Shown: one piece after another, positions 2,573 through 33,495 of the stretch
How the letters are laid out: the number at the start of each line of letters is the position of its first letter
How positions within the stretch are numbered: position 1 is the first letter of the stretch
Virus record (IMG/VR): IMGVR_UViG_3300037461_000469
Span: 29,752 to 93,751 of that record
Direction: 5' to 3' (one strand)
From: a virus
Lineage: Duplodnaviria > Heunggongvirae > Uroviricota > Caudoviricetes
Length of the DNA stretch: 64,000 nucleotides
Position numbers and translations under genes: made by a program
Notes under the pieces: generated by a model
Told to the model about the DNA's origin: nothing
What the model saw: the letters and a program-made list of their open reading frames with translations, nothing else
Database searches by the model: none

Positions 2573-2838
2573 TTGTAAAGAACTTCCTTCTTGAAAGAGG
2601 CCTTCAAGTACTTGACTGTCTGCACGATAAAAACACCTGATACAGCGGCAAGAGCAACGATAATCAGAAGCCTTTTGGTAACTTCAGGAAAAGAATGTAG
2701 AGTGCCGTTGATGAAGCCGATGGATGAGCCGATGAAAAAGATGCGGCCTACGTGTTTCAGGTAGGACATATCTTTCATTCCCTGCGTAGTGTTACGCTTG
2801 ATTTTCCAAATCCGATATCGCCTGATTAATTCGTTCAT
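2569..2838 (-). CDS. small membrane protein
   Basis: ORF with a hydrophobic segment; coupled to the downstream gene. Confidence 0.45.
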   Translation of the reverse strand: MNELIRRYRIWKIKRNTTQGMKDMSYLKHVGRIFFIGSSIGFINGTLHSFPEVTKRLLIIVALAAVSGVFIVQTVKYLKASFKKEVLYK

Positions 2839-3860
2839 TCTTTCTCCTTCAAAAGAAATTCGTTGTTCAGCACCTTGAAACTGATACGGCTACGCATTTT
2901 CTCGGAAAAGTCTCCGTAGGTCGCACGAACCACGATGCCTTCCCTGTCGTTCTGCGTTCCGTTGTATTTACCCTTCGCCATTTCCAAGAGTTGCTCTTGG
3001 TCGTAGTGGAATCCTTCACCCATTTGCACTAACGGGACACGCTCTAGGCCGAACATTGTAACGACCTGAAACATCCTAGGAACGGACAGATACTTTCCAT
3101 CGTCAATGTCGTACACATCGAAAACGAAAAGCGAGTGTTCGGTCAATCCCAACTTGTTCTTTTGGATTCCTGGGCCGCAAATTTCGCCCTGAATGGCGAT
3201 GTTCGCACCCCACTCCCGCATCTTCTTTTCTAAGTCGTACTTACGAGCCATCTGCCAATAGACAGAGCCTTCGCTGTCCTTCTTTTCCATATTGCGTGAG
3301 CAGACCCCGAACTCGCCACGGTTAAAGTAAATCGTGCAACTCGTCCCATCACACTTTGTCGAGATGTAGTAGGACTTGCCACGCAATTCATTAAGAACTT
3401 TGGGGACGTTCTGAATCCGCTCTTCGTCCGTTTTCGGAAACAGCGGCGGGAAATTTCCCTTGGTATCACCTTGGTTAAAGCCGCCAGGAACGGGTTTCTC
3501 GTAGTGAGTAATCCCTAGAGTGCCTGAAACGTCCTGACCGACCTCGTATTCAAGATGGGTCAGCGGCGGCAGAATTGTCAGCGGGAAAACAATCCCCTGT
3601 GAAAGCGTTCCACGAAGTTTAATCGTTTTGATGCGGAACTTTTCCTTCGCAAGAAAGGCAAACTCAGGCTTGTCGGGAACGATGGTGTCGATTTGAATAT
3701 AGACCACCGCATCACCAACTTTAAACTCACCCTTCTTGACTACCACTTGCCACCCAAGCACGTAGGCCTTTTCGATGGCATCAGCGTTTTCAATCGGCTG
3801 AATGTCGATAATTTTTTGAATTGATGCTAACATTTTTAAATCTCCTTGACCTGAATCCAA
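2835..3860 (-). CDS. ATP-dependent RNA ligase-like nucleotidyltransferase with N-terminal OB-like domain
   Basis: KxDG adenylation motif (ISTKCDGTSCTIY) in the middle of the protein; N-terminal region looks like an OB/tRNA-binding fold, as in DraRnl-type ligases. Confidence 0.55.
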   Translation of the reverse strand: MDSGQGDLKMLASIQKIIDIQPIENADAIEKAYVLGWQVVVKKGEFKVGDAVVYIQIDTIVPDKPEFAFLAKEKFRIKTIKLRGTLSQGIVFPLTILPPLTHLEYEVGQDVSGTLGITHYEKPVPGGFNQGDTKGNFPPLFPKTDEERIQNVPKVLNELRGKSYYISTKCDGTSCTIYFNRGEFGVCSRNMEKKDSEGSVYWQMARKYDLEKKMREWGANIAIQGEICGPGIQKNKLGLTEHSLFVFDVYDIDDGKYLSVPRMFQVVTMFGLERVPLVQMGEGFHYDQEQLLEMAKGKYNGTQNDREGIVVRATYGDFSEKMRSRISFKVLNNEFLLKEKE

Positions 3861-7408: not shown

Positions 7409-7942
7409 TTACCTTTTAACGACAACTAGTTGTGTTTTGATTTTCGGACTTTCCAACGATTTAACGGCTTCAATATTTCTTTCGCTATCATCGTAAAACC
7501 GCACATCATCGTAATCATCCAATCGGGACAGAATTGCGTTCTTTTTCAGTCTCGCTAGTTCCTCGCCTGTTGCTCCCTTTTTACCCCCCACGATTATCAG
7601 GCGGTCAGGGTCAACCCACTTCGACAGGAACTCGCGCAAGCCGCTTGTGTTCGGCCTAGCGGTTAAAATCATAATATCCGAATCACCGCCCACTATTTTG
7701 CGGAAGGCGGTCTTCAGAAAATTGGTAGGTTTCGGATTAATCAATCCCCCTTGCTCAAAATCAGAAAGGTCGATTTTATCGTCAGGTTCGACTTTGTAAT
7801 CGGCAAATTCCTGTGTCGATAAGGATAGGCCTTTGTTCGGGATTCTGATTTTAGCATCGGTGGTTGCCAGGCAATCATCGAAATCAAATACACGGAGTTT
7901 TCTTTTTATTTTTTTAAATTTCATATTATTAAATCTCTCCAA
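7409..7942 (-). CDS. HAD-superfamily hydrolase (possible polynucleotide phosphatase)
   Basis: HAD motif I VFDFDDCLA (DxD), with later ILTARP and GGDSD motifs. Confidence 0.5.
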   Translation of the reverse strand: MERFNNMKFKKIKRKLRVFDFDDCLATTDAKIRIPNKGLSLSTQEFADYKVEPDDKIDLSDFEQGGLINPKPTNFLKTAFRKIVGGDSDIMILTARPNTSGLREFLSKWVDPDRLIIVGGKKGATGEELARLKKNAILSRLDDYDDVRFYDDSERNIEAVKSLESPKIKTQLVVVKR

Positions 7943-8613
7943 CTTTCATTATTTTTTATTCTGTAAAATTGTTTTTTAGAAATATTAAAATAACTAAAAA
8001 TTTCTTTTCTAGGAATTTTATTTTCGTTTATCAATTTCCTAATTTCGATTACGTTTTCTTTTGTTAGTTTAGCATTGGGATTGGTTTCCCCTTTCAATTT
8101 TTCTTTTACTTTTGGGTATTCTTGTAAAAATATTCTTCTTTTTTCTGATTGTAATTTTTTGGTTTTTTCAAGATGTTTTTTCCCCCAAAAAGGATGTTGT
8201 TTTCCTCTCATTTCTTTAGGGTGTTCTTTTAAATATTTTTTCCTTTTTTCCTTCATTAGATTTTTAGTTTCTTGTGATGGTGTCCAACCTAAACTACCTT
8301 CTCCACCTTCTGTTAAATTCCAACCTATTTTTTGTTTAGGGTCATAAGTATTTCTATTTTTAATTTGAAATTTTTCTCTAAGAAAAAGTAATTTTTCAAA
8401 TTCTTTTTCATTTCCTGTGTTTTTATGAACTTCTAAAATTTTGAAACAATTTTTATCAATTGGGAAATATTTTCTTAATGCATTATGGAAATATTTATTA
8501 GAATTTTTTACATTAAAATGGTCTTTAAATCGTTGTTTTAAATCAAAAGTAATCCCTACATATTCTTTATTACAAATTTTGAAAACATAAATAAATCCCC
8601 AATTAATCATCAC
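7921..8613 (-). CDS. GIY-YIG homing endonuclease
   Basis: GFIYVF...YVGIT...R...H GIY-YIG module; repeated NUMOD3-like basic motifs; AT-rich island. Confidence 0.75.
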   Translation of the reverse strand: MMINWGFIYVFKICNKEYVGITFDLKQRFKDHFNVKNSNKYFHNALRKYFPIDKNCFKILEVHKNTGNEKEFEKLLFLREKFQIKNRNTYDPKQKIGWNLTEGGEGSLGWTPSQETKNLMKEKRKKYLKEHPKEMRGKQHPFWGKKHLEKTKKLQSEKRRIFLQEYPKVKEKLKGETNPNAKLTKENVIEIRKLINENKIPRKEIFSYFNISKKQFYRIKNNESWRDLII

Positions 8614-9216: not shown

Positions 9217-9835
9217 CGTCCTTCACTTTCTTGGTCGGCGGGACGAACCGCTTGGGTTGCGGAAGGCCAAGGCGATTGTAAACCTCAGTCTCAATCTCGT
9301 CAATCTTCGCTCTTACGGGCTTGTAGGCCGTCTCTTCGATGTTGTCGAGAGCCTTCTGCATAATGTCGGGAAGGTTGACGCTGAAAGGCTTGCCCTTGTT
9401 CTCAGGAAGGTTGGCAATCTCGTTCAGTTTCTTTTCCAACATTTTCTTGACCGTCCGTTCGTTCGTGAACGGGTCGAGTTTTGTTTTCCACTCCCGCTTC
9501 ATATTCGGGATGATGCCCCTGTCCTTGTCTAGCCAAGAATCCTTGGTCGGCGGGGTCTGCATTTTCTTGACTTGGGTGAGCGTATCGTCCACCCGCTTCA
9601 CGAACCGATTAACGTCCTTAATCTCGTCCGTGTCCTCGTAGGCCTTCCAAAAGTCGTAGGGGACATCAAGGGCTGGCGGGGTCGGACGCAAAGAGAGCGT
9701 TTCGGCAAGTTCCTGCGCTCGTTGTTCTCTCTGCTCAGGCAGGAGGCTGTCGTAATCGAGTTCTTTAAAACTGTTCCACACAGTCCGCTTCTGCTCTTCC
9801 AACTCTTGCTCTATCGTTTTGTCATTTTCGTCCAT
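9194..9835 (-). CDS. hypothetical protein
   Basis: ORF downstream of consensus promoter 9852..9880. Confidence 0.5.
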   Translation of the reverse strand: MDENDKTIEQELEEQKRTVWNSFKELDYDSLLPEQREQRAQELAETLSLRPTPPALDVPYDFWKAYEDTDEIKDVNRFVKRVDDTLTQVKKMQTPPTKDSWLDKDRGIIPNMKREWKTKLDPFTNERTVKKMLEKKLNEIANLPENKGKPFSVNLPDIMQKALDNIEETAYKPVRAKIDEIETEVYNRLGLPQPKRFVPPTKKVKDDGTDNAV

Positions 9836-9851
9836 TTTTTACCTATAGTTT

Positions 9852-9880
9852 AGTATATCATAAAATGATAGACTTGTCAA
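9852..9880 (-). promoter_or_regulatory. sigma70-type promoter, TTGACA-N17-TATACT
   Basis: Reverse complement CTTGACAagtctatcattttatgaTATACT. Confidence 0.6.
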
Positions 9881-10071
9881 GCGTTGTTGGCTTCGCCTTC
9901 GCCAAAAATTTCCTTGGAAAGAAGCGATACTCGCTCCTTTTCGAACGTCCGAATTTCATCGTACAGGGCATCCATATCCCTCTGCGTCCTGTTCTTATCG
10001 GCAAAGAGAGCCTGAACCTTTTTAAGAAGTTCGGTCTGCTTCTCTTCGATTTCCTTCAACGACATTATCAT
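9877..10071 (-). CDS. hypothetical protein
   Basis: ORF. Confidence 0.4.
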   Translation of the reverse strand: MIMSLKEIEEKQTELLKKVQALFADKNRTQRDMDALYDEIRTFEKERVSLLSKEIFGEGEANNA

Positions 10072-10391
10072 TTGCGTCTCCTATTAACTTTTCTTTGCTT
10101 CCTAGCGACCTTCGCCGCCTTCGCCCTCTTCGCCGCTTTCTTTTGGAGTTGCTGATTCCGCAGATTGGCCTTGAAGCGAATCTTCATCACCCTCTCTTCG
10201 TAAAGAGCCTTCATCTTTTCAAGTTGCTCCTTCTGAGCGGGAGACATCTTCGACAGGACGGTTTCTTCGTCTATCGGCTGTTTAACCTTTTCTTTGTTCT
10301 TTTTTTTGGGTACGGTATAGGGGATTATATCCTCTGCAAGTTCTTTAAGTTTTTTTTCTTTCTCTTCGAGAGTTCTAGTATCGTCTTCCAT
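10068..10391 (-). CDS. Lys-rich basic protein
   Basis: ORF; very basic C-terminus. Confidence 0.45.
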   Translation of the reverse strand: MEDDTRTLEEKEKKLKELAEDIIPYTVPKKKNKEKVKQPIDEETVLSKMSPAQKEQLEKMKALYEERVMKIRFKANLRNQQLQKKAAKRAKAAKVARKQRKVNRRRK

Positions 10392-10392
10392 T

Positions 10393-10560
10393 TACTCGTT
10401 CTCCTTGTTCAGTTCTTCCTTGGCCTCTTCGGTGTATTCCTTCACCAAGTCTTTGTACTCCGACTTGGGGCAGTACTTCCATCCCTCAGCTGCCACCATC
10501 TTGACAGCGGCCTTGTCCTTCACTCGCTTGACGTTCTTGCCCTTTTTAACGGTTTTCATT
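10393..10560 (-). CDS. small hypothetical protein (55 aa)
   Basis: Hand-translated ORF MKTVKKGKNVKRVKDK..., below the 60-aa cutoff of the ORF track. Confidence 0.35.
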
Positions 10561-10584
10561 TATTCTTCTCCTGTTCTTATTATA

Positions 10585-11535
10585 TCACACCCCGTAACCG
10601 AAATGCTCTTTCAGCATTTCAACCACTAGGCTATTAACCTCTTCGTAGCGGGGCTTGGAAGGAAGCGGCGATTTCTCGCTCATCTTTTCCACCCACTTTT
10701 CCAATTCCTCTCCGAGTTTCAAAACCTCGTTGAGTTTCCACTTGCCTTCCTTGACCTCTAGGACGAGTTGCCTGTCCTTCAACGGGAATTGCAAATCGCC
10801 CGTTTCAAGCAGTTCCATCCCTTCCATCAGAAGCCGAAGAAAATGCGAAGCGAACTTGGTATCGTAGCCTTTGCTCAGGTAGAGTTCCTTGCGGTTCCCT
10901 ACTTTCTCTAAGCGTTCGCTTATCTTTTTAACAACCCACCTGAGTTGACGGGTCAGTTCGAAGTCCAAGTCTCCGATAGTTACGTGCTTTTGCTTGAACA
11001 TCATAAACGGCAGATTTTTGTCCTTCAACTCCACCATGTAAGTCTCAGGCTTGTTAAACTCCACCATCCAATCAAGAGCATTTTTCAGTTCGTAGAACTT
11101 GTCAGTCCTGATTACCATTTTGTGTTTTTGCGAAAAGCCGTAGCCCAAAAACTTGTGCATCAAGCCCCGATGCAAAAACAGATGGCGGTTGTCCAAAAGT
11201 TTGAGACCCATTTCGTTCAGGAACAACACGTTCGGCTCGTTCACGAACAGTTGCTCCACCACGTTCGGGTTGTTCTCTAGGGACAGCCGCACGAACTTGC
11301 GGAACTCGTAGAGTTTGCGGTCAACAGCGTCAGGGTTGTTCTTGCCGTCCTTGCCCTTCGACACAACGGAAAGGTCAACCTCTTCGACAGCGTTCAGCCC
11401 AAGGTAGTACTCTTCGGGAGCCACGAACACGCCGCTGAAGTCCTCGTCAGAGGTCGGGGTGTTAGTGCCGTACAGATGGGAGCCTACCCTGTATTCAAGG
11501 ATTCTTCCCTTTTCAGCAAAAAGTCTTTCGTTCAT
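10585..11535 (-). CDS. Pol-beta superfamily nucleotidyltransferase (RNA-repair-associated type)
   Basis: N-terminal GS...D.D motif (RVGSHLYGTNTPTSDEDFSGVFV) typical of minimal nucleotidyltransferases. Confidence 0.5.
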   Translation of the reverse strand: MNERLFAEKGRILEYRVGSHLYGTNTPTSDEDFSGVFVAPEEYYLGLNAVEEVDLSVVSKGKDGKNNPDAVDRKLYEFRKFVRLSLENNPNVVEQLFVNEPNVLFLNEMGLKLLDNRHLFLHRGLMHKFLGYGFSQKHKMVIRTDKFYELKNALDWMVEFNKPETYMVELKDKNLPFMMFKQKHVTIGDLDFELTRQLRWVVKKISERLEKVGNRKELYLSKGYDTKFASHFLRLLMEGMELLETGDLQFPLKDRQLVLEVKEGKWKLNEVLKLGEELEKWVEKMSEKSPLPSKPRYEEVNSLVVEMLKEHFGYGV

Positions 11536-14196: not shown

Positions 14197-14784
14197 TTAA
14201 TCGGCAACTCCCATGTGCGTACTGCGATATTTGTCAACCTCAGCGGCCTTCTTCACAACTTCGTCCTTGCTCATTACCTTGTATTCGTTGTTCGCACCCG
14301 CAAGATTCTTGACAAAGCGGCTGTAAGAAACCGTGCTAGGCTCGTTGTCGCAATCGCCAAGCACCGCCACTAGGACGTAGCCTTCTTCCTTGCCGAAGAA
14401 TTTCTTCAACTGCCGAGCCTCGTCCTTAGTGAAATCGGGGTCTTTTCTGTAAGCGTCCGTGGTGTACACAACGCAACGCACCCGAACACTCTTCATTTCA
14501 GGATGGCGTTTCAGGTACATTCCGACCTCGCCCCGATACTGCCGAAGCACGTAATCTTTCGGGTCTTTGCTACCACGCTTCCAAGTCCCTGCGGACACCC
14601 AATCGTTGACCTTTTTGGGAAGGTCTATAACGGCCTGTCCTTTGACCAAGCCCGTTGAAAAGTCGTGCTTCTCAATCGCCCCACTCAATTCAAAGAAAAA
14701 TTCCCCTCTGAAATTAAGAAAAACTTTACTGCCGACAGTCTTAGAGTTGAACGCTTCGCAGATATCCGAAACCATTACTTTCAT
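14197..14784 (-). CDS. hypothetical protein
   Basis: ORF downstream of consensus promoter 14804..14832. Confidence 0.5.
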   Translation of the reverse strand: MKVMVSDICEAFNSKTVGSKVFLNFRGEFFFELSGAIEKHDFSTGLVKGQAVIDLPKKVNDWVSAGTWKRGSKDPKDYVLRQYRGEVGMYLKRHPEMKSVRVRCVVYTTDAYRKDPDFTKDEARQLKKFFGKEEGYVLVAVLGDCDNEPSTVSYSRFVKNLAGANNEYKVMSKDEVVKKAAEVDKYRSTHMGVAD

Positions 14785-16158: not shown

Positions 16159-16187
16159 ATCTTATCACATTTTTTCCCAATTGTCAA
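16159..16187 (-). promoter_or_regulatory. sigma70-type promoter, TTGACA-N17-TAAGAT
   Basis: Upstream of the AT-hook gene. Confidence 0.5.
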
Positions 16188-16968
16188 GCCACCAAAGCGT
16201 TTGTAGCATCGACAACGTGGCAATCGGCGGTAATTTCCGTTTAAATTCGGACTTCTTCACACGGTTTAAGACCTTGACGATGGTTGCTCTTGGGAAACTT
16301 CCTACTTCTTCGATTTCGTCTAGCGAAAATCCTTTTTCGTCCCACAGGTGCAAAATCTTGTCTATCTCTTTGTAGGTAACGCCGATTTCGCCTTCGTCCG
16401 TCTGTCCTTCCCAAAGGTCGGCAGAGGGCTTCTTGTTGATAATCACGTCAGGAACACCCAAGTATCGGGCGAACTCAAAGACCTGAGTTTTGTATAGGTC
16501 GGCAATCGGTTCAAAAGCCGCCGCATCGTCCCCGTGCTGAGTGCAATAGCCAATCAGGTACTCGCTCTTGTTGGACGTTCCCGCCACGAGTGCGCTCTTG
16601 CGAACGGAGAAATCGTACAGGACGCTCATCCTTTCTCTTGCGCACTTGTTCGGAATCTGCAAGTGATGTTCGGCGGGGTAGCGGTTAAAGTAAGCGTACA
16701 CCGAAGGCGAAATGTCGATGGTTTCGTGTGCAATCCCTAGAGTCTCGCAAACCAACTTGCCGTGTTCAAGGCTTTCAGGAGAAGAGGTACGGAAAGGCAT
16801 CATCAGACTGTAGACGTGTTCAGCCCCTAGCGCACGGACGCACAAGGTTGCAACCACGGCTGAATCCAAACCGCCTGAAACCCCGATAACCACGTTCTTG
16901 AACCCGCTCTGATAAACGTAGTTCTTGATGAATGTAGTCGTGTATTTTTCAACTAATTCCCAATTCAT
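16165..16968 (-). CDS. nadE: NH3-dependent NAD+ synthetase
   Basis: PP-loop SGGLDS motif and overall NadE-like length and sequence. Confidence 0.75.
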   Translation of the reverse strand: MNWELVEKYTTTFIKNYVYQSGFKNVVIGVSGGLDSAVVATLCVRALGAEHVYSLMMPFRTSSPESLEHGKLVCETLGIAHETIDISPSVYAYFNRYPAEHHLQIPNKCARERMSVLYDFSVRKSALVAGTSNKSEYLIGYCTQHGDDAAAFEPIADLYKTQVFEFARYLGVPDVIINKKPSADLWEGQTDEGEIGVTYKEIDKILHLWDEKGFSLDEIEEVGSFPRATIVKVLNRVKKSEFKRKLPPIATLSMLQTLWWLDNWEKM

Positions 16969-17183
16969 TTTTTATCTCCCTTTAATTGCATACTGATGAT
17001 TTTGATGGCATCGTCCCAAGTGGGGGCTTTAAAAGGCCTGACCACGGTTATCACGAACGGGTTGCCCTCGCAATCACGTGTGTAATCATCGTGGTCTCCG
17101 AGCCACCGCTTCAGTTGAATCGTCCCGTTGCTGTGGAGATAACCCCACCACCACGTTCCTTGTAAATTCTTTTCAATGTTCAT
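16965..17183 (-). CDS. hypothetical protein
   Basis: ORF coupled to nadE. Confidence 0.4.
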   Translation of the reverse strand: MNIEKNLQGTWWWGYLHSNGTIQLKRWLGDHDDYTRDCEGNPFVITVVRPFKAPTWDDAIKIISMQLKGDKK

Positions 17184-17332
17184 TTGTTCTCCTTTTTGAT
17201 AGTTTTTCCTTTTTCAAAAACTTCTTGTAAAATGGCGATAATATCTCTTTCACACCAAAAATTAGTACACATTGGTTTAAAAACTTCGTAAACTTTTTTG
17301 GCTTTATTTTTGATATATCTTTTTTCGTTCAT

Positions 17333-18499
17333 TTATCCTCTCCTGATGATGCTCTTCAGCATCTTCAAATAGTTTTCGTCCTCGCACATCCCCTTGCCGC
17401 TGTTGTCCGAAATCTTCGCAACGGGCTGGCCGTTACAATGCGTCATTTTGATGACGATGTTCAGCGGCTCACGCTCCAAGTCGTTCGTCAGGTTCGTGCC
17501 GATGCCGAACGAAACCTTGATGCGCTTGTGGAAATACTCGTACAGGCCAATGGCCTTGATGATGTCAAGACTGTCGCTGAAAACGATGGTTTTGGTCTTG
17601 GGGTCGATGTGGAGTTTCTCGTAGTGCTTGATGATTTTCTCACCCGCTTCGATAGGGTCGCCGCTGTCGTGGCGAACGCCGTCAAACAACTTGGCAAAGT
17701 AACTGTCGAAATCCCGAAGGAAAACGTCAAGTCCTAGCGTGTCGCTCAGGGCAATCCCCAACTCGCCCCTGTATTCGTCTGCCCATTTCTGAAGCATGAA
17801 TTTCTGACTGTCCTTGATGTTGGTCAAGGCCTGACCCGCCTGAATCCACTCGTGCGCCATCGTGCCGATTGGCTTGATGCCGTGCTTGTAGGCAAAGTAC
17901 ACGTTGGAAGTCCCGACAAAGTTCTGCGGCAACTCCCCTTTCAGCGTCCCGACAACGGTGTTCTGCCAACTGCGGGAAAATCTGCGCCGTGCGCCGAAAT
18001 CGCTGAATTTGAAATCGGGGTCTCCGAAGGATAATACCGAATGGATTTTCTTGTACAACTTATTGGAACCCGTGATGGTCTCCGATAAAGTGTCCTTGTC
18101 GGTCAGGTTGAAATAGACCTCGTTCACAATCGAAAGCACAGGCGTTTCGAACAGAATCGTGTGAACCCACGGCCCTTTGATGGTGATATCCAACACGCCA
18201 TCGACGAGGCCGATTTTAATGTACTCTTTGCGCAACCTGAAATTACGCAAAAAGTCGATGTAGTCGGGCTTCAAAAAGTAAATCGTGCTGAGGTACTTTA
18301 ACTCTTCGGTATCGAAATGGAGTTCGCAAAGGTGCAAAATCTGCCGATTAATCTCGTCAAACTGTTCCTTCGTGAATTTAACTCCCTCGTTGCGGCACTT
18401 GAACTTGAACCTAGCATCCGTGCTAGGGAACTGATGGAGTACGGCCTGTTGCTGAGAAAATTTGTATAAATCCGTGTCCAATAATGATTCAATAATCAT
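17333..18499 (-). CDS. pncB: nicotinate phosphoribosyltransferase
   Basis: N-terminus LLDTDLYKFSQQQA matches the conserved NAPRTase start; length ~390 aa. Confidence 0.75.
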   Translation of the reverse strand: MIIESLLDTDLYKFSQQQAVLHQFPSTDARFKFKCRNEGVKFTKEQFDEINRQILHLCELHFDTEELKYLSTIYFLKPDYIDFLRNFRLRKEYIKIGLVDGVLDITIKGPWVHTILFETPVLSIVNEVYFNLTDKDTLSETITGSNKLYKKIHSVLSFGDPDFKFSDFGARRRFSRSWQNTVVGTLKGELPQNFVGTSNVYFAYKHGIKPIGTMAHEWIQAGQALTNIKDSQKFMLQKWADEYRGELGIALSDTLGLDVFLRDFDSYFAKLFDGVRHDSGDPIEAGEKIIKHYEKLHIDPKTKTIVFSDSLDIIKAIGLYEYFHKRIKVSFGIGTNLTNDLEREPLNIVIKMTHCNGQPVAKISDNSGKGMCEDENYLKMLKSIIRRG

Positions 18500-19137
18500 T
18501 CTTCTCTCCTTATTTTATATCCTTTAGTATTATCTCGTTCTTTCCTTAAAACTTTATATAAATTTCCGTGTTGAATATCGTGTTCTCGGCAAAATTGGCT
18601 AATATTATCAGTATGATATTCCATTCCATTTGGGTCAATAATAATATATTTGACATATTTTCTATTTTTACCCAACATAGATTTTCTCATTTTTTCTAAT
18701 GTTTCGGGTTTTGTTATTCTTTTTTTTCTAGCAATACTCAAATTCTTTTTGTGTTTTTTAGTGAATTTCATTCCTATTCTTGATTTACTAATTTTATTTC
18801 TACATTCTAATGTTCTCTTTTGACCTATATGTTTTTGTCTGATTTTTTCTATAGTTTCGGGTGTTATTCCCGAAAACCCATCACCACCATAAGAACGATT
18901 ATAACCAATATTTTTATCAGTAGAATTATTAACCTCAATCCAATATTTTTCCCTCTCGTTTAGAGTTTGGTAATCGGAACAATTTTCTAAAATTTCCTTT
19001 TTGAAGTTTTCTTTGCCGTACTTTTTGATTGCCTGTCTAATAACTATTCCTGACCCGTAATATCTTTTTCTGTTTTTCGTGTCTTTCCCCACGTATATCT
19101 TGCCGTTAATCAGGTTAGTTATTTTGTAGATGTTCAT
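18496..19137 (-). CDS. GIY-YIG homing endonuclease inserted between pncB and pncA
   Basis: NIYKITNLINGKIYVGKD...YYGSG GIY-YIG module (start at internal Met); NUMOD3-like repeats; AT-rich. Confidence 0.7.
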   Translation of the reverse strand: MNIYKITNLINGKIYVGKDTKNRKRYYGSGIVIRQAIKKYGKENFKKEILENCSDYQTLNEREKYWIEVNNSTDKNIGYNRSYGGDGFSGITPETIEKIRQKHIGQKRTLECRNKISKSRIGMKFTKKHKKNLSIARKKRITKPETLEKMRKSMLGKNRKYVKYIIIDPNGMEYHTDNISQFCREHDIQHGNLYKVLRKERDNTKGYKIRREE

Positions 19138-19175
19138 ACCTTTATTTATCGTTTTTGTATAAGTCAGTATCCAAA

Positions 19176-19847
19176 TTACGCTCCTAACATCTTGGCAAAG
19201 TTTTTCAGGTCTCTCAGCCAACTTTCGACAGAAGCCGTCCCGCCGTAAATCGTGCGGATGCCCAACTTGCTCATTTCCACGTCAGCCACCATCTGAGTTT
19301 CGGTGCTGATGGCACGGGTGGCGATGTCGTTGACAACAACGATGAATCCCGCCTTGCGCAACTGAATTGCCGTGGTCTTGACGCAGTAATCGTAGGCGAG
19401 ACCGCCGACAATCACCACCTTGACATCCTTGCTCTTCAGCCACTCAATCACGCCCGTGGAGAGTGTATCTCCCATATCGTGATAGCAAGCCCCGTAAGGG
19501 TGAAGGTCAGGCTCAATTCCCTTGAAAACGAAGTAGTCGTAGTCAACTACCTTCGGCAGACCGTCAAGCAGTTCGTTTCCCTTCGTGCCGACAACACAAT
19601 GGGCGTTCCAATGAATGTCCACGTTTGTGCCGCCGTCCTTCACAGGGGTGAACTGAGGATGCTCCGCATCGGCAGTCCACAACGCCTTCGGCGGGTGGCA
19701 ATCCTTCGACCCCACTCTGTAGTCAGCGAGAGCGGCCTGAGCGTTCAGTTCCCCGACAATCTCATCCCCACCCTTCACGGGCAGTTCATCAGGACGCAGG
19801 GGCGTAAAACCCTTCTGTGCGTCCACATCAAAACTTGCAATCTTCAT
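19176..19847 (-). CDS. pncA: nicotinamidase/isochorismatase-family hydrolase
   Basis: FDVDAQKGF motif; catalytic Cys in VIVGGLAYDYCV. Confidence 0.7.
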   Translation of the reverse strand: MKIASFDVDAQKGFTPLRPDELPVKGGDEIVGELNAQAALADYRVGSKDCHPPKALWTADAEHPQFTPVKDGGTNVDIHWNAHCVVGTKGNELLDGLPKVVDYDYFVFKGIEPDLHPYGACYHDMGDTLSTGVIEWLKSKDVKVVIVGGLAYDYCVKTTAIQLRKAGFIVVVNDIATRAISTETQMVADVEMSKLGIRTIYGGTASVESWLRDLKNFAKMLGA

Positions 19848-19850
19848 TTT

Positions 19851-20102
19851 TTATCTCCTTTCAAAACAGGTATAGACTTCAAAAATTCGTCCAATCCCTG
19901 TTCGTTTGTCAATCTGATTAAACCTGATAATTTGGCTATGGTCAACCTCTTCCTGCCCTGAGAAGCGAGTATAAAACCCACCTTTCCCACGGCAAGCGTA
20001 ATTGTTGCAATTGGTGCAGTAATATTTTTCAACTTCGGATTCATCGATGTTAGGGTGGATTTTCCTGATGAATTTTAGGCGGTTAATTTCTCTAGGGGTC
20101 AT
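19851..20102 (-). CDS. hypothetical Cys-rich protein
   Basis: ORF with 4-nt overlaps on both sides; CTNCNNYAC. Confidence 0.45.
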   Translation of the reverse strand: MTPREINRLKFIRKIHPNIDESEVEKYYCTNCNNYACRGKGGFYTRFSGQEEVDHSQIIRFNQIDKRTGIGRIFEVYTCFERR

Positions 20103-20368
20103 TTGATATCGCCTGTGTCCCTGAGCATATCAATGTGCTTGCAAGAGTGGCTTCTCCACGACCATTTTTGGTAAGAAGGGCAAGTACAAGTCCAAATTTT
20201 GTACGTTTTGCCCGATTTTTTGAATAAAACGTCCTTTTTTGCTACGATATAGGCCAATTTCCTCTCAAAATTGAAGATTTTAAAGGCAAACTCGCCTATT
20301 TTGGTAATTTTATAAGTCGGGAGTAAGAAAAATTTATTTTTTTTCTTATTTAATTCTTTCATATTCAT
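20099..20368 (-). CDS. SWIM-type zinc-finger protein
   Basis: CxCx(n)CxH signature (WTCTCPSYQ...SHSCKHI). Confidence 0.5.
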   Translation of the reverse strand: MNMKELNKKKNKFFLLPTYKITKIGEFAFKIFNFERKLAYIVAKKDVLFKKSGKTYKIWTCTCPSYQKWSWRSHSCKHIDMLRDTGDIK

Positions 20369-20397
20369 ATTTTAACATATTTTTTAGTGTTTGTCAA
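20369..20397 (-). promoter_or_regulatory. sigma70-type promoter, TTGACA-N17-TAAAAT
   Basis: Upstream of the SWIM protein gene. Confidence 0.5.
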
Positions 20398-20917
20398 TAG
20401 ATTGTCGCAAATAAAATAAAGCAAGATTGTTTAATCTTTTATTTTCTAATTCCTTTTGTTTTTTTCTTCTTTTATGACTTATTTTTAATTTTTTAGCGTG
20501 AATTTCTTTCGCTTGGGGATTATTTTGAAAGTAATTTTTTATTGTTCTTTTGATTTTCTCTTTGTGTTCTTCTGAGAGGGGTTTACCCAATAACGCTTTT
20601 TTTATTTTTTGCTTTGTCAATTCGTGAACTGTTTTATTCGTTTCTCCTCCGCTGTTTAAATTATATCCGTAAGGCACTAAAGTATTTAATTCTTTAATTA
20701 AAAAATTTTCAGCCCAATCTAAATTTTCTACAGGATAATCAAAATGAATCCATTTGAAATTCATAATCCCATATTTTTCTATGGCTCTATGAAAATACTT
20801 ACAACCATTACATCTAATATGTGCGCTTTTTCTTTTGTTTAGTGGTTGAATAGTTTGACCGATATATTGTTTTTTATTAATTAGATTGGTAGCAATATAA
20901 ATTATTCCTTTCTCCAT
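20384..20917 (-). CDS. GIY-YIG homing endonuclease
   Basis: GIIYIATNLINKKQYIGQT...R...H GIY-YIG module, NUMOD3-like motifs; AT-rich; start assumed at internal Met. Confidence 0.65.
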   Translation of the reverse strand: MEKGIIYIATNLINKKQYIGQTIQPLNKRKSAHIRCNGCKYFHRAIEKYGIMNFKWIHFDYPVENLDWAENFLIKELNTLVPYGYNLNSGGETNKTVHELTKQKIKKALLGKPLSEEHKEKIKRTIKNYFQNNPQAKEIHAKKLKISHKRRKKQKELENKRLNNLALFYLRQSIDKH

Positions 20918-20948
20918 CTCCCTTATTATACCACACTTTGTAACGAAA

Positions 20949-21659
20949 TTATCTTTTTTTTCTTGCGGAGCCGCCTTCATCCTTTTTTACGGGCGGCGGC
21001 GGTGTTAAATGGCGGTAAGGGGTAATTGTGGGTCTGTGGGGGACCACTGTACCCTGATATTCCCGTCTAGAAGGGTTAAAACTGCGTGGGAAATCGCTTC
21101 TAGGCACGAATTTGCGCTCATTTCGGGGAATCACCCTCATCCCGTCCCTGCGTGGCTGTACGGGCATCTGACGGCGATACCCGTCAGGCCGTTTCAGGCT
21201 ATCCCTGCGGATGATAAAAGGCCGATTTTGTCCGCTGTTCCTGTGCTGATAGTAGTAATCAAAGTGCGGCCTCCAATGCGGACGATAGTGCCGATGATAC
21301 CAATGGCTCCACAGGCTGTTGTAGTAGCCGTATCCCCAAGAATTGCAGAACCAATCGTAGGAACGCCAAATAATGCGCCCTCTGAATCGTGGTACGATGT
21401 AGTGGTAAAAATAGTCGTAGGGGATGATGTAAATGCGGTTGCCGAGAATCACTAGGAACACCCTGTCGCTGTCGTAATAACTGTAGAGGATGTCGTAGTC
21501 AGCGACAGACCAATCTACCTGAGCGTAGTTGTCTAAGTATGCGTAGTCTTCGCTGTATTCCTCTTCGTAGTCGTACTGCGGTTGGGCGAACATCATCGAG
21601 CATCCTGTTGTCAGTAGTGCCGTTAATACAAGCACAATTGTGAAAAGAATCTTTTTCAT
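20949..21659 (-). CDS. secreted/lipoprotein-like Tyr/Trp/His/Arg-rich protein
   Basis: Signal peptide ending LLTTGCS (lipobox-like); extreme Y/W/H/R/P composition. Confidence 0.5.
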   Translation of the reverse strand: MKKILFTIVLVLTALLTTGCSMMFAQPQYDYEEEYSEDYAYLDNYAQVDWSVADYDILYSYYDSDRVFLVILGNRIYIIPYDYFYHYIVPRFRGRIIWRSYDWFCNSWGYGYYNSLWSHWYHRHYRPHWRPHFDYYYQHRNSGQNRPFIIRRDSLKRPDGYRRQMPVQPRRDGMRVIPRNERKFVPRSDFPRSFNPSRREYQGTVVPHRPTITPYRHLTPPPPVKKDEGGSARKKR

Positions 21660-21940: not shown

Positions 21941-23491
21941 ATGTTTCAAAGCCTATTTGAATATTCCAACAACGGGATTGTGATTACAACCCCTGTTGAT
22001 AACGGAAATAACTTTGTTATCAAAGACATCAACCCCGAAGCCGAAAAAATAGAAAAAATAAAGAAGGAAGATGCTGTCGGTAAACTGATAACAGAGATTT
22101 GGCCCGGAATAGAAAGTTTTAGTCTGCTTACCACGATGCGAAATGTGTACAAAACGGGGAAGGGTGAACAACACCCTACTTCATTTTATCAGGACGAACG
22201 CATTTCAGGCTGGCGTGAGAACTTTGTTTACAAGGCCAAGACAGGCGAAATCGTCAATATCTATTATGACCGCACGGAAGAGAAAACGATAGAGATTAAA
22301 AACGCTTCCATCATCAAGGCACTTCCTGATTTATTTTTCAGATTCAGCGAAGATGGTACATATTTGGATTGTTGGACTAGCAATCCAAAACTTCTTATTC
22401 AACCAAAGGAAGATTTTATCGGCAAGAAACTAGAGGAAGTCCTACCGAAAGATATTGCTGATGGAGCGTATAAATTAATCAGGGAAGTTGTTGAAACAAA
22501 AGAACCTAGAAGTTTTGAGTACGAATTGGTTTTGTATGGCGGCAAGAGATATTTTGAATCACGATTGGTTTTCGATTCCGACCATACGGTGATGGCAATT
22601 GTAAGGGATGTTACCGACAAGATAGAGATGGTCGGTAAGTTGACGGAGAGCGAACAAAAATTCCGAAAGATTTTCAAGACAAGTCCTGATGCCATTCTGC
22701 TCACTTCTGTTGTGGATGGAAAAATTCTTGATGTCAACGAAGCGGGGGTGGCACTCACGGGATATACGTTGGATGAAATGTTAGGAAAGACAACAATTGA
22801 AATGGAATTTTGGTTTGATATAGAAGAAAGAAGTAAATATATTCAAAAATTATTGACAGAAAAACAAATTAATAACTACGAAGCAAAATTCAGGACAAAA
22901 CATGGAATAATTGATACTATGATTTCTGGAGAAATCATGGAAATTAATGGACAAAATTATTTCGTTTCTATTATTCGCAACGTTAGTGATTTGAGAAAAA
23001 TAAACAGGGAACTAAAATTCAGTCAGGAAAAGTTTAAGGATATTGTTGAAAACATTTCTGAAATTGTTGTTGAAATGGATAAAGATTACACGGTTACTTT
23101 TGTGAATAGTGGAATATATCATGTTACAGGATATACACCCGAAGAAATAATTGGTAAAGATTGGACACATTTCTTTACTGAAGAAACTCGTACTAAATGC
23201 CAAAGTCTTCATAAAGAAATGGTAAGAAGGAAAAATAGTTCGATATACAATTGTATTGCCGATTTCATAACAAAGACAGATGAAATTAAAATTTTAAGTG
23301 TCCAATTCAGAATTGCATTTATGAATGGTAGTGGGACAAAGACATATATGGTTGCCCGGGATGTTACCGAAGAGGAGATGGAAAAAAGAGAGAAAAAATT
23401 AGTTGAAGATAAATTGAAAGATGAGTTCCGAGAAACCTTATCCCGCATTGGTGCGGACTTAAAAAATATGACAAGTAGAGGAGAAAGATAA
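21941..23491 (+). CDS. multi-PAS-domain protein (about 4 tandem PAS folds, no output domain)
   Basis: Repeated PAS-like segments; good RBS AGGAG upstream. Confidence 0.6.
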   Translation: MFQSLFEYSNNGIVITTPVDNGNNFVIKDINPEAEKIEKIKKEDAVGKLITEIWPGIESFSLLTTMRNVYKTGKGEQHPTSFYQDERISGWRENFVYKAKTGEIVNIYYDRTEEKTIEIKNASIIKALPDLFFRFSEDGTYLDCWTSNPKLLIQPKEDFIGKKLEEVLPKDIADGAYKLIREVVETKEPRSFEYELVLYGGKRYFESRLVFDSDHTVMAIVRDVTDKIEMVGKLTESEQKFRKIFKTSPDAILLTSVVDGKILDVNEAGVALTGYTLDEMLGKTTIEMEFWFDIEERSKYIQKLLTEKQINNYEAKFRTKHGIIDTMISGEIMEINGQNYFVSIIRNVSDLRKINRELKFSQEKFKDIVENISEIVVEMDKDYTVTFVNSGIYHVTGYTPEEIIGKDWTHFFTEETRTKCQSLHKEMVRRKNSSIYNCIADFITKTDEIKILSVQFRIAFMNGSGTKTYMVARDVTEEEMEKREKKLVEDKLKDEFRETLSRIGADLKNMTSRGER

Positions 23492-26570: not shown

Positions 26571-28493
26571 ATGGCTAAAATAGCAACAAAAGTTCGCGCA
26601 CCTTTGCCGACATTGACCGCCGATGAACTGAAAACTTTCTACGAGTGTTCTCAGGACATTTTGAAGTTCATCGAACACGTTAAAATCTACAACCCTGCAA
26701 GGGGAACATTACTCCTGTCCGATGTCATCTACCCGAAGCAGAAAAAGATACTTGTGGACTTGCAGAATAATTGGAAGAACAAGTACGTTGTCTTGCTCTC
26801 CCCTCGTCAGTCTTCGAAGACCACGCTCGTTCTAGTGTTCATCCTGTGGCTCATTACCTTCACGTCCTCATCCAACATCGGCATCCTTGCGAACAAGAAG
26901 GATAACGCAAGAAAGATATTCCGCAGATTCAGCGGGATGTACGAGAAACTTCCTGATATGTTCAGGCTGTCAAGTTCGACAAGCGACAGCAAGTTCGAAT
27001 TGGAGTTGGAAGACGGAACCATCGTGTTCTGCGCCGCAACGAGCAAGTCGGGCTTGCGTTCGGAATCCTTGACGCTCCTGTACTTGGACGAATTTGCGTG
27101 GTTGCCTACGCCTGAATTGCAGAGCGAGTTTTGGACTTCGAACTACCCCATCATGCAATCGATGGACGGCGGCTTGATTGTCAGTTCGACCCCGAACGGC
27201 AAAGAACTCTTCTACGACCTGTGGCGCAAGACGCAGAAAACTCTCAAAGGTGAACCGAATCCGGCCTACGACCCGAAGTGGATTTTGGAGCAGATTCATT
27301 GGAAGGACGTTGACCCTAGAGGCAAGGGTAGGGATGCCAAGTGGAAAGAGCAAACCATCCGAGACCTTGCCGTTGGCGGCAAGAACGGAGAGGAACGCTT
27401 CGCTCAGGAATTTGACAACTCGTTTGAGATTCAGGCGGGTGTTGCCCGATTCTTCAATCCTGACGTAATCGCTAGGTTCCAATACCAACCGCCTCTGTTC
27501 GAATGGGTTCCTAACAAGAACTACACAGGCGAACCGATGAAGATTTACGATACTGTCGGGGACCAGTCGTTTTTGGTCGGCATTGACATTTCCGAAGGCA
27601 AGGGGCTTAACTTTTCTACCGTGATAGGCCTATCCGTGCGCAAGGTAAAACTTCAGGGAGAGACAAGCCTAGAGACGTTCGCAGTTAAGCAAGCATTTCA
27701 GTTTATGCACGCGAACACCTTGCCCGATGACTTCTTTAACTTCCTGTTCATCTTCTTACTGACCCAATTGAATGACAAGTGGTTCCTGATTTTTGAATTG
27801 AACGATGTCGGACGCACGTTCTCAGTCCGTTTCGAAAACTTGATTGAGGAAATCACCACTAACGAGTTTTCCAAGAAGAACGATATGTTCAAGCAGTTCT
27901 TGGTGGATAAGTTTTCAGGGGACAACGAGAAGATGGTCAACTACCTAGTGAGACGGGTATTTCGTTCTCTAGGTGGTGCGAAGAGACGTGGTTATATCCC
28001 GTGGGGATTTAAGTCCGACAGGAAGAACAATATCGACCTAAAGAACAACTTGAAGACAGTTGTAGATAAGGGGATGGTGTCTGTCGTGGACGAGTTCTTG
28101 CTTGAAGAGATGCGGTTGTTTGAAGATAAGAAAGGCAAGGAGAATATCACCCACTCACGCTACGATGGCACGAGCCACTTTGACCTGATTACGGCCTTGA
28201 AGTTCGCAACGTGGATGATGTCGGACAGGAGCCGAATGAAGGATGTCATGGCTATCTCCCCTCTTATCGATTCTAACCAATCTAGGGAACAGCAGTACTT
28301 GGAAGCCGTCCTAGGGGCAAACATTTCCAGGAACGCCCATGAATCCTTCCGTAAGCAGATGCAGAGAGAAAATATGGAACAGTTGAAGACAGAAGGAGAG
28401 GTTCCTCTTTCGTACAACGAAATCAGCATCAAGGATATGGGAGATGTTACTTCGATGTGGAAACCCTTCGGACGCATCACTAGAAAACGATAA
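26571..28493 (+). CDS. terL: terminase large subunit
   Basis: Walker A LLSPRQSSKTT, Walker B LLYLDEFAW, and a C-terminal nuclease-like region. Confidence 0.75.
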   Translation: MAKIATKVRAPLPTLTADELKTFYECSQDILKFIEHVKIYNPARGTLLLSDVIYPKQKKILVDLQNNWKNKYVVLLSPRQSSKTTLVLVFILWLITFTSSSNIGILANKKDNARKIFRRFSGMYEKLPDMFRLSSSTSDSKFELELEDGTIVFCAATSKSGLRSESLTLLYLDEFAWLPTPELQSEFWTSNYPIMQSMDGGLIVSSTPNGKELFYDLWRKTQKTLKGEPNPAYDPKWILEQIHWKDVDPRGKGRDAKWKEQTIRDLAVGGKNGEERFAQEFDNSFEIQAGVARFFNPDVIARFQYQPPLFEWVPNKNYTGEPMKIYDTVGDQSFLVGIDISEGKGLNFSTVIGLSVRKVKLQGETSLETFAVKQAFQFMHANTLPDDFFNFLFIFLLTQLNDKWFLIFELNDVGRTFSVRFENLIEEITTNEFSKKNDMFKQFLVDKFSGDNEKMVNYLVRRVFRSLGGAKRRGYIPWGFKSDRKNNIDLKNNLKTVVDKGMVSVVDEFLLEEMRLFEDKKGKENITHSRYDGTSHFDLITALKFATWMMSDRSRMKDVMAISPLIDSNQSREQQYLEAVLGANISRNAHESFRKQMQRENMEQLKTEGEVPLSYNEISIKDMGDVTSMWKPFGRITRKR

Positions 28494-32502: not shown

Positions 32503-32578
32503 TGGCGGGCCAGGAGGGAGTTGAACCCCCAGTCTCAGATTTGGAGTCTGATGGTTTATCCAATTAACCGACTGACCC
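32503..32578 (-). tRNA. tRNA-Trp(CCA)
   Basis: Hand-folded cloverleaf: acceptor GGGTCAG/CTGGCCC, anticodon loop CTCCAAA, T-loop TTCAACT, CCA encoded. Confidence 0.75.
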
Positions 32579-32579
32579 G

Positions 32580-32666
32580 TGGTGCTAAGGGTGGGATTCG
32601 AACCCACAATCCGTTGCCGGCTACGGCTTTTGAGACCGCATTGAATACCAGTTCCAGCACCTTAGC
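32580..32666 (-). tRNA. tRNA-Leu(CAA), type II
   Basis: Acceptor GCTAAGG/CCTTAGC, AC loop CTCAAAA, long variable arm, T-loop TTCGAAT, CCA encoded. Confidence 0.75.
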
Positions 32667-32667
32667 A

Positions 32668-33450
32668 TTATTTCATTTCAGCAGTAGCCTGTATCACACA
32701 ATTATTAAGAAACTCTCTATCTTGGGTAAAAGTAGGAGCGTGTGCAGTTGCCCATTTGCTACGGCTTACATCATTGATAAGGGTGTGAACTTTGATAATC
32801 ATTCTACCCCTCTTGTACTTGGGGGCGTAGTCGTTCCAATTCTGCCCCTTCTGAAAAATCATTTCCTGAAGTTCTGTCGTGTTCTTGCCGTTCATTTCCT
32901 TGTGCGAGTAGAGAGATTGTGCAACCGAAAGGATACTGTTGCGAACACAGTCCTGTTGTCTCCAAATGAAGTAGTTTTGTACCTCGTCCCACTCAGGGAT
33001 TTGAAATACCCTGCTGTCGAACTCACCCCACTTCATGTTACGAGTGCAGGACTCAATTGTGTGTGGGCCTTCCTCGTAAGCAAACCTTTTCAGCCTAGCC
33101 TCATTGAATGCCCTCGTTGCCATACTTGCCGACACGCTTGCCATCTTCTGAATGTTGTTGTCGAACCAAGCATCCGTTGTGAGTTTGTCGAAGTCCATGA
33201 GAAGAATAGAAATCTCATCGGACTGCACGTAGGCGAACTTGGCTCCCTGAATGTTCTTGCAGAGGTCGGCCGCAGTTGCGTCCATGTCCTCAATAAATCC
33301 ATCATCGAACGGACGAGTCAGCCCACGCGTGTACGTGTGGAAAGCCTTCCCGTCAATTCGGATAATGGTGTGCGTTCTACGGGGCAGACAAATTCGTGTT
33401 CTGTCCTCGTAGTTCGATTTCATCCTATTTCCGATGTCATCTTTCTTCAT
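32668..33450 (-). CDS. Thg1-like protein (tRNA-His guanylyltransferase family 3'-5' polymerase)
   Basis: IIRIDGKAFH...AYVQSDEISILL and WRQQDC motifs match the Thg1/TLP family; the gene sits between two tRNA-Leu genes. Confidence 0.7.
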   Translation of the reverse strand: MKKDDIGNRMKSNYEDRTRICLPRRTHTIIRIDGKAFHTYTRGLTRPFDDGFIEDMDATAADLCKNIQGAKFAYVQSDEISILLMDFDKLTTDAWFDNNIQKMASVSASMATRAFNEARLKRFAYEEGPHTIESCTRNMKWGEFDSRVFQIPEWDEVQNYFIWRQQDCVRNSILSVAQSLYSHKEMNGKNTTELQEMIFQKGQNWNDYAPKYKRGRMIIKVHTLINDVSRSKWATAHAPTFTQDREFLNNCVIQATAEMK

Positions 33451-33495
33451 TTTATCCTCACTAAAATTAAATACTTGGTGCTAGCGAAGGGATTC

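Follow-up and report, generated by a model that had tools for sequence, protein, structure and literature searches.

Depletion of nicotinamide adenine dinucleotide (NAD+) is a major antiphage strategy of bacteria. The locus described here raises the question of how a phage could make use of an NAD+ salvage pathway from which one step is missing. It lies in a 64,000-nucleotide stretch of viral DNA (positions 29,752–93,751 of IMG/VR record IMGVR_UViG_3300037461_000469; hereafter the window) and encodes three enzymes of the Preiss–Handler pathway, PncA (nicotinamidase), PncB (nicotinate phosphoribosyltransferase, NAPRTase), and NadE (NAD+ synthetase), with no gene for the adenylyltransferase NadD. 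We find that this cluster is a well-verified member of a class of phage NAD+ salvage loci that is already known and modular and in which the missing step is a common state. We also consider it probable that the locus acts as an auxiliary Preiss–Handler module feeding the NadD step of the host, where we infer the activities of the enzymes, the use of host NadD, and the benefit to the phage. The window comprises ∼38% of its 168,828-bp source contig (the JGI contig that bears an identical PncA, from a sample also represented in Logan as SRR12684589), and the findings on the window cover these 64 kb.

Phage-Encoded PncA, PncB, and NadE

The genes pncA, pncB, and nadE follow one another in pathway order on one strand within 3.7 kb (table 1), and the occurrence of three enzymes of the same pathway in such a span, two of them with E values below 1e-80, is far beyond chance. 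All three genes lie at exactly the coordinates given in the original prediction, and profile hidden Markov models (HMMs) uphold the family assigned to each product, with NadE and PncB scoring above curated cut-offs and PncA above that of PF00857 only.

The PncA sequence keeps the catalytic triad D9/K109/C155 together with the metal ligands D49, H51, and H83, which are arranged as D49-x-H51 and, for H83, within a WNAHC motif. A metal-binding Asp/His/His site separates nicotinamidases from other isochorismatase-like enzymes, and its conservation argues for the former. All seven PDB sequence matches are nicotinamidases, and the alignments place D9, D49-x-H51, H83, K109, and C155 on their triad and metal site. 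Among 50 distinct PncA-like proteins encoded near phage pncB genes, D9, D49, H51, and H83 are present in each of the 49 sequences that span these positions and C155 in all 50, while K109 splits over two groups of alignment columns. An AlphaFold model built on 32 homologs (predicted local distance difference test score of 91.7) modeled as a nicotinamidase, in that the best 12 Foldseek matches in the PDB all belong to this family, with TM-scores of 0.67–0.82. Bacterial proteins named nicotinamidase are 59–65% identical to the phage protein, those of Bordetella 59–61%. By family, the product is a nicotinamidase, with the activity predicted.

PncB is full-length and contains both NAPRTase domains, the N-terminal PF17767 and the catalytic PF04095. 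The possibility that it belongs to a different phosphoribosyltransferase family is not borne out, as it passes the NAPRTase equivalog models TIGR01514 and NF003704. In an alignment of PncB homologs, residues G212, T213, A215, H216, and E217 of the GTxAHE motif are invariant; we take H216 to be the histidine of the ATP-coupled phosphoenzyme, a role ascribed to its counterpart in Salmonella PncB. The protein is 70–74% identical to its phage relatives and ∼49% identical to a bacterial-type PncB, the pncB product in database records under the names Acinetobacter phage MD-2021a and Moraxella phage Mcat17.

NadE has an SGGLDS ATP-pyrophosphatase motif at residues 31–36 (N-type SGGxDS), no glutaminase domain, and a place in the PHROG family 'NAD synthetase'. 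Its closest PDB matches are the NH3-dependent synthetases 2e18, 3p52, and 1xng (∼182 bits), and the Francisella enzyme 3fiu, presumably a nicotinamide mononucleotide (NMN) synthetase variant, scores 128 bits. NadE is nearest to characterized NH3-dependent enzymes that amidate nicotinate adenine dinucleotide (NaAD) and may share their substrate, although sequence does not by itself settle specificity.

Absence of an Adenylyltransferase from the Window

The original prediction held that the enzyme converting nicotinate mononucleotide (NaMN) to NaAD is absent from the window, and both of our approaches agree. Pfam scans of essentially all window open reading frames (ORFs) of at least 100 codons returned no PF01467-type match, and a NadD/NadM HMM compared with all six-frame window ORFs of at least 50 codons gave a best E value of 1.3. 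The HMM was composed of 29 phage proteins and was seeded by the nadD products (PF01467) of two phage loci, L006 and L007; most of its members carry an (H/T)xGH motif and a few a TxxH variant. A search with the regular expression GxFxPxHxGH had no match in the window or in the other loci and also missed the real, variant-motif NadD proteins of L006 and L007, and HMMs were therefore used instead. Two candidates were considered and rejected. The ORF at 14197..14784 matched NadD in tblastn and with a small HMM of the L006 and L007 proteins (E ∼0.01), which we regard as noise: the match covers only NadD residues 78–176 without the HxGH region, the ORF has no Pfam or PHROG match, and the similarity is lost with the 29-member HMM. 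DUF5662, which recurs in phage pncB clusters as described below, was rejected as a NadD substitute since other clusters have it whether or not nadD is present, and the window lacks it.

The genomic arrangement of other phages bears on the same point. In 27 of the 29 phage loci that have nadD, the gene lies within 2.5 kb of pncB, and the largest distance is 6.4 kb (L015). In the window, the two flanks of pncB are free of nadD for 17 kb and 45 kb, respectively. Given this tight linkage elsewhere, the lack of a nadD over such distances indirectly favors a true absence. Nor is nadD found in the relatives of the window within 10 kb on either side of pncB (L003 and L004) or in the retained flanks of L001 and L002, both of which are cut at a contig end.

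Distribution and Gene Content of Phage pncB Loci

Genes for PncB are rare among deposited phages: they occur in 13 of 50,697 records, most of which are genomes between 460 and 735 kb in size. In IMG/VR, at least 180 stretches with pncB are found. We classified 83 loci by HMM and merged those whose PncB proteins reached 90% identity; the census covers the 50 distinct loci that have 6 kb or more on either side. The ±8 kb considered around pncB is not a genome, and IMG/VR contigs may include misassigned cellular DNA. The complete set of pncA, pncB, nadD, and nadE is present in 16 of these 50 distinct loci. Nine have pncA, pncB, and nadE, the set found in the window, and another nine have pncA and pncB; seven have pncB alone, five pncB and nadE, three pncB and nadD, and a single locus pncA, pncB, and nadD. 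An adenylyltransferase gene is therefore present in 20 of the 50 and absent near pncB in 30. Across the census, the most constant combination of two genes is pncA and pncB.

These states of gene content are interleaved on a neighbor-joining tree of PncB, where sets without nadD recur in many separate branches; the clade of the window, which includes L010/L001 and L012/L003, lacks nadD throughout. The original prediction had singled out this particular combination of enzymes as worth checking, and the census shows that it is not unusual. Within the relatives of the window, the adjacency of pncA and pncB is retained at 70–82% protein identity in L001 and L003 and at 56–66% in L004, and this conservation of order and sequence indicates that the genes are under selection.

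Several other genes recur around phage pncB. In other loci, pncB stands beside a gene for an NAD-dependent DNA ligase (5 loci) or Nudix hydrolases (11 loci), and in related loci its neighbors include HAD_SAK_2, a CCA-adding enzyme, and Thg1. DUF5662 (PF18907) is encoded in 17 pncB clusters, often directly between pncA and pncB and with or without nadD (examples in table 1). Its conserved H..HD..HH..H pattern suggests a small HD-type hydrolase; we found no PDB sequence match and no literature on this domain. In L056, a single ORF of 415 codons at 9563..10810, beside pncB, matches both the NadD and the NadE HMM and is an apparent NadD–NadE fusion.

Gene Neighborhood and Predicted Expression

The three genes are part of a continuous series of ORFs on the minus strand (16165..20368). 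In the direction of transcription the series consists of an ORF of up to 89 codons, an 83-codon ORF, pncA, a GIY-YIG endonuclease gene, pncB, ORFs of 50 and 72 codons, and nadE. At its head is a near-consensus sigma-70-type site. Eleven such sites, each with 11 or more matches out of 12, occur in the window, compared with 1.7 ± 1.3 in shuffled sequences; all are on the minus strand, 10 have an extended −10 TG, and as a set they resemble early promoters for the host polymerase. No intrinsic terminator-like site was predicted on the minus strand between pncA and nadE. The NAD genes share a strand, follow the order of the pathway, and stand behind a near-consensus promoter of the host type. They are thus probably expressed early and jointly, and early cotranscription by the polymerase of the host can reasonably be predicted from these signals.

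Table 1. Coordinates of the Features Discussed in the Text (Window Positions Unless a Locus Is Named)
Feature	Coordinates	Strand	Size	Evidence or remarks
nadE, single-domain NH3-type NAD+ synthetase	16165..16968	-	267 aa	PF02540, 272.8 bits; NF010587, 316.8 versus cut-off 255
ORF between pncB and nadE	16965..17183	-	72 aa	tblastn, 73% identity to L003 11221..11421
AT-rich ORF	17180..17332	-	50 aa	26% GC; no Pfam or PHROG family match; no homolog in related loci
pncB, nicotinate phosphoribosyltransferase (type II)	17333..18499	-	388 aa	TIGR01514, 488.7 versus 269.55; NF003704, 552 versus 379
GIY-YIG homing endonuclease gene, free-standing	18496..19137	-	213 aa	PF01541, 25.8 versus 22.6; TIGR01453, 57.9 versus 56.05; phrog_314 'homing endonuclease', E = 2e-37
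pncA, nicotinamidase (predicted)	19176..19847	-	223 aa	PF00857, 39.8 versus 27; triad and metal site; fold
ORF upstream of pncA, function unassigned	19851..20102	-	83 aa	Weak L003 homolog, 33% identity, E = 2e-9
ORF, function unassigned	20099..20368	-	up to 89 aa	64% identity to L003 8899..9114 (residues 17–89)
Sigma-70-type promoter-like site	20369..20397	-		TTGACA, 17 nt, TAAAAT, extended −10 TG; 11 of 12 matches
Second GIY-YIG homing endonuclease gene	20384..20980	-	198 aa	28% GC; PF01541, 33.6 bits; TIGR01453, 66.5 versus 56.05
Homing endonuclease genes other than that between pncA and pncB (two GIY-YIG, one LAGLIDADG)	7921..8613, 20384..20980, 52326..53015			24–29% GC versus 43% for the window
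Sigma-70-like sites (11), starts of first hexamer	54187, 42715, 42548, 29393, 20397, 14832, 14180, 11570, 9880, 7029, 6072	-
DUF5662 genes in other phage loci (examples)	L050 7432..7980, L054 7427..7957, L062 7419..7967, L033 3920..4477

An overlapping 66-codon frame (19844..20044) is the alternative to the 83-codon ORF and is preferred by the gene call on a Logan contig. The most upstream ORF has no Pfam or PHROG family match, its position upstream of pncA is kept in L003, and its real start is probably downstream of 20368. The 72-codon ORF likewise has no match in Pfam or PHROG, and its L003 homolog sits immediately after pncB; the AT-rich ORF of 50 codons is possibly a moron or an insertion. 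We rejected the ideas that these latter two ORFs arose by the splitting of a 120-codon ORF that occupies this position in L001 and L002, or that they are a remnant of nadD, as there is zero similarity in either case.

That the window is phage DNA is established by a T4-type large terminase gene (26571..28493) and genes for an ATP-dependent DNA ligase, two RNA ligases, RlaP, and a CCA-adding enzyme, in addition to 35 tRNA genes and several homing endonuclease genes. The large terminase is only ∼25% identical to that of any deposited phage, and a search at the DNA level showed that none of the deposited phages matches the region. Exact 40-mers likewise gave no match in IMG/VR or in the metagenome collection, and an identical PncB is not on record. 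The source is a large, uncultured, distantly T4-like phage. L003, which is syntenic with the locus, comes from a contig of 239 kb.

Homing Endonuclease Genes at the pncB Locus

The GIY-YIG gene that the original prediction described as wedged between pncB and pncA is a true insertion, as the ∼660 bp of the insert are missing in L001, L003, and L004, where pncA directly adjoins pncB. The mechanical ORF extends over 18496..19221, starting at a TTG at 19221, and the likely gene runs from the ATG at 19137 to the TGA at 18496; a gene call made independently on a 4-kb Logan contig of identical sequence (L090) gives the same 213-residue protein. It comprises the catalytic domain and a NUMOD-like DNA-binding tail. 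The insert has a GC content of 29%, compared with 49–55% for pncA, pncB, and nadE. Upstream, the TAA of pncA (19176..19178) is followed by a plausible ribosome-binding site and the ATG of the endonuclease gene; downstream, the TGA overlaps the ATG of pncB (ATGA, 18496..18499), and an AGGAGA just upstream preserves a ribosome-binding site for pncB. Given the empty junction in the three relatives, the low GC content, the ATGA overlap, and the intact neighbors, we interpret the gene as a selfish, free-standing insertion at an intergenic junction that disrupts neither neighbor. It is now predicted to be translationally coupled to pncB.

The second GIY-YIG gene, ∼0.5 kb upstream of pncA, is also missing at that place in L003. 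The three GIY-YIG genes of the window have a mutual identity of only 28–31%. Four further phage loci (L017, L021, L028, and L075) have GIY-YIG/NUMOD genes directly beside pncB, and the edges of pncB thus appear to be a recurrent homing site. The gene resembles the Seg-type free-standing GIY-YIG endonucleases of T4-like phages in its intergenic position between conserved genes, its presence or absence among relatives, and its low GC content, its cleavage activity and target site being putative.

Other Features of the Window

An array of 35 tRNA genes on the minus strand (32503..42669) covers most amino acids and includes tRNA-Ile(tat) and, as called by ARAGORN, one tRNA whose anticodon has four bases (caga; 39578..39653). 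Inside the array, on the opposite (plus) strand, are three paralogous genes (37311..37931, 38678..39364, and 40568..41224) for Cys-rich, zf-FCS-like proteins of ∼206–228 residues, which are probably mobile endonuclease-type genes based on faint endonuclease-like Pfam matches. A 134-residue protein with a 'FVFGSNLSGKHGKGAAK' motif and no Pfam match is encoded at 44796..45200 (minus strand), adjoining the lysozyme/tRNA region.

Genes of an RNA-repair type are spread over 2835..3860, 10585..11535, 45472..47358, and 51097..52323 and encode Rnl2-like and Rnl1-like RNA ligases, an RlaP nucleotidyltransferase, a CCA-adding enzyme, and a kinase. The CCA-adding enzyme (45973..47358) and the AAA_33 kinase (45472..45972) adjoin a minus-strand gene (47348..47767) for a 139-residue protein that may be an NAD+-consuming ADP-ribosyltransferase, a borderline case with an ART-PolyVal score of 31.3 versus a cut-off of 31.2 bits. 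Divergent from the NAD gene series, an ORF on the plus strand (21941..23491) encodes a 516-residue protein that consists of PAS domains without an output domain, an unusual cargo for a phage. A long minus-strand block (∼54900..63985) of glycosyltransferase, sulfotransferase, methyltransferase, and radical-SAM genes is possibly a surface or DNA/sugar modification pathway.

Relationship to Known NAD+ Systems

Phage Preiss–Handler clusters, including phage pncA, have already been published. A survey of gut jumbo phages (PMC11662467; Microbiome 2024) found complete NAD+ pathways in 174 of 668 genomes, among them Preiss–Handler clusters such as pncB-nadD-nadE of Kuafu_71, and mentions phage pncA. 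The window cluster shares with these phages the clustering of pncB and nadE and a proposed purpose, more NAD+ for the phage, and both are computational predictions. It differs in that the jumbo phages have complete pathways in genomes larger than 200 kb, whereas here pncA is part of the cluster, nadD is missing across 64 kb, so that the window holds less than a full pathway, and the known contig, which may be only part of the genome, is 168.8 kb.

Two cultured jumbo phages have comparable genes, with PncB proteins only ∼35% identical to that of the window. Sinorhizobium phage Phosso encodes nadE, pncB, and a 'hydrolase' with nicotinamidase motifs; unlike the window, its cluster also has an NMN adenylyltransferase and a Nudix gene. 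Agrobacterium phage Atu_ph07 has PncA-like and pncB genes and, unlike the window, a NadD-like gene and a Nudix hydrolase (ADP-ribose pyrophosphatase) in its cluster. Two of its genes, annotated as 'hypothetical protein' (L008 1350..1958 and 1963..2622), are recognized by the phage HMMs for PncA (E = 5e-39) and NadD (E = 7e-49), respectively, and lie beside the ADP-ribose pyrophosphatase gene and 3–4 kb from pncB, constituting an unannotated Preiss–Handler set.

The bacterial PncA–PncB–NadD–NadE salvage pathway has the same families, catalytic residues, and reaction order as the window cluster, which differs from it in belonging to a lytic-type phage genome, in lacking the NadD step, and in being interrupted by a homing endonuclease gene. 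The deamidating four-step route from nicotinamide to NAD+ is described in PMC9316036.

Three phage routes to NAD+ have been proven experimentally: NARP1 (Adps and Namat), NARP2 (Nampt and Nmnat), and NARP3 (PnuC and NadR). NARP2, which includes NadV/NatV of Vibrio phage KVP40, resembles the window cluster in leading from nicotinamide to NAD+ by a phage pathway; unlike that cluster, it is a self-sufficient, two-step amidated route via NMN with enzymes of other families and an experimentally shown counter-defense role. NARP1 and NARP3 likewise rebuild NAD+ with phage genes, the former from ADP-ribose (ADPR) and nicotinamide via ADPR pyrophosphate and the latter by importing nicotinamide riboside. 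Pfam scans found no Adps, Namat, PnuC, or NadR gene in the window, and the window is not self-sufficient in the manner of the NARP systems, as the step from NaMN to NaAD has no gene in its 64 kb. The NARP preprint contains no mention of PncA, PncB, NadE, or NadD, the survey of Iyer et al. covers only NadV, NadM, and NadR, and we found no paper in which a phage PncA/PncB route was tested. PHROGs v4 has NAD synthetase families and no dedicated PncB or PncA family.

Proposed Function and Alternative Explanations

We propose that phage PncA would convert nicotinamide to nicotinate and that PncB would join nicotinate to phosphoribosyl pyrophosphate, yielding NaMN. The adenylylation of NaMN to NaAD would then be performed by an enzyme not encoded in the window, most likely host NadD, and phage NadE would amidate NaAD to NAD+. 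In bacteria, these four deamidating steps from nicotinamide are textbook biochemistry. PncA and PncB are nonuniversal, flux-limiting steps, whereas NadD and NadE are essential in nearly all bacteria. Given this distribution, a phage may carry the entry enzymes only, an idea that fits the prominence of the pncB–pncA pair in the census. The module would raise the capacity of the infected cell to convert free nicotinamide, the product of NADase defense effectors and ADP-ribosyltransferases, to NAD+. The phage may benefit through counter-defense, through the supply of its own NAD+-using enzymes, or both, and a counter-defense role against Thoeris, DSR, or SIR2 systems is a plausible hypothesis.

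Several points weigh against this proposal. PncA falls short of the equivalog model for the E. coli type, NF008623 (62 bits; cut-off, 174), which we read as membership in a PncA subfamily other than the E. coli type. The activities of the enzymes and their expression are deduced from sequence, and the promoter-like sites are consensus matches only. The absence of nadD holds for ∼38% of the contig, so that an unlinked phage nadD, nadM, or nadR is possible, and the presence of NadD in the host, which is unassigned, is assumed from general knowledge. Finally, the syntenic locus L003 lacks nadE at this place; nadE is thus dispensable, and the conserved unit of the window clade is pncA-pncB rather than the trio, with nadE as an accessory.

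Among the alternatives, the one that survives best concerns the benefit: the locus may be a general metabolic helper rather than a counter-defense system, providing NAD+ for a long infection or for phage consumers, or a salvage entry that the host lacks. We lean against this explanation while regarding it as a serious contender. The putative ADP-ribosyltransferase encoded by the same phage is consistent with it, as are the genes for NAD-dependent DNA ligases and Nudix hydrolases beside pncB elsewhere. The argument for phage–host complementarity in NAD+ synthesis and the list of many phage NAD+ consumers in PMC11662467 point in the same direction. However, the DNA ligase of the window is ATP-dependent, the entry substrate nicotinamide is exactly what NADase effectors release, and NARP1, NARP2, and NARP3 show that phage NAD+ synthesis defeats such defenses. 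The two roles are also compatible.

It is unlikely, in our estimation, that the pathway is instead complete in the phage, with nadD, nadM, or nadR encoded outside the window and no dependence on host NadD. The limited share of the contig covered by the window leaves space for such a gene, an adenylyltransferase accompanies pncB in two-fifths of the distinct loci (20 of 50), at a distance of several kilobases in L015, and both Phosso and Atu_ph07 have one. Against this stand the tight linkage of nadD to pncB wherever nadD occurs, compared with the long nadD-free flanks of the window, and the corresponding lack of nadD in the flanks of pncB covered in L001–L004.

We consider it very improbable that the cluster is decaying cargo, with endonuclease invasion and the patchy disappearance of nadD and nadE as signs that a formerly complete pathway is eroding and has ceased to matter to the phage. 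Gene content is indeed very labile across loci, and the region has received two endonuclease genes and an AT-rich mini-ORF. However, all three ORFs are intact and full-length with every catalytic residue, they retain 70–82% identity to relatives while flanking genes diverge similarly, and the endonuclease gene occupies exactly the intergenic gap with the ribosome-binding site of pncB preserved.

Least probable of all, to an extreme degree, is an NadD-independent chemistry in which a PncB-like enzyme joins nicotinate to ADPR pyrophosphate to give NaAD for NadE to finish, a deamido analog of NARP1 Namat: its arguments are a logical fit with pncA-pncB-nadE lacking nadD and the precedent of an evolved Nampt homolog in NARP1, whereas PncB lies far above the canonical NAPRTase cut-offs and close to bacterial-type PncB (∼49% identity), the window lacks a PRPS-like gene for Adps, the close PncB relatives in L013, L014, and L015 co-occur with nadD, and L003 has pncA-pncB without nadE.

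Implications for Phage NAD+ Metabolism

A salvage module that feeds host NadD is thus the explanation that we favor for this locus, which adds a verified example and a census and introduces no new principle. Large phages often carry part of the Preiss–Handler route, with pncB the most constant component, usually accompanied by pncA, and the adenylyltransferase mostly missing, and none of the three demonstrated phage routes for rebuilding NAD+ uses deamidating Preiss–Handler enzymes. It is tempting to posit that a pncA-pncB core with nadE as an optional booster constitutes a fourth, deamidating pathway of NAD+ reconstitution, widespread and modular, that captures the nicotinamide freed by NADase defense effectors and uses host NadD and NadE to overcome NAD+-depleting immunity, so that phages would need to bring the nonuniversal entry enzymes only; we are cautious about this broader proposal and, on present evidence, consider it doubtful. 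If such partial sets do feed host NadD, they would provide phages with a cheap fourth countermeasure to NAD+ depletion and would make host NadD a point of phage dependence.

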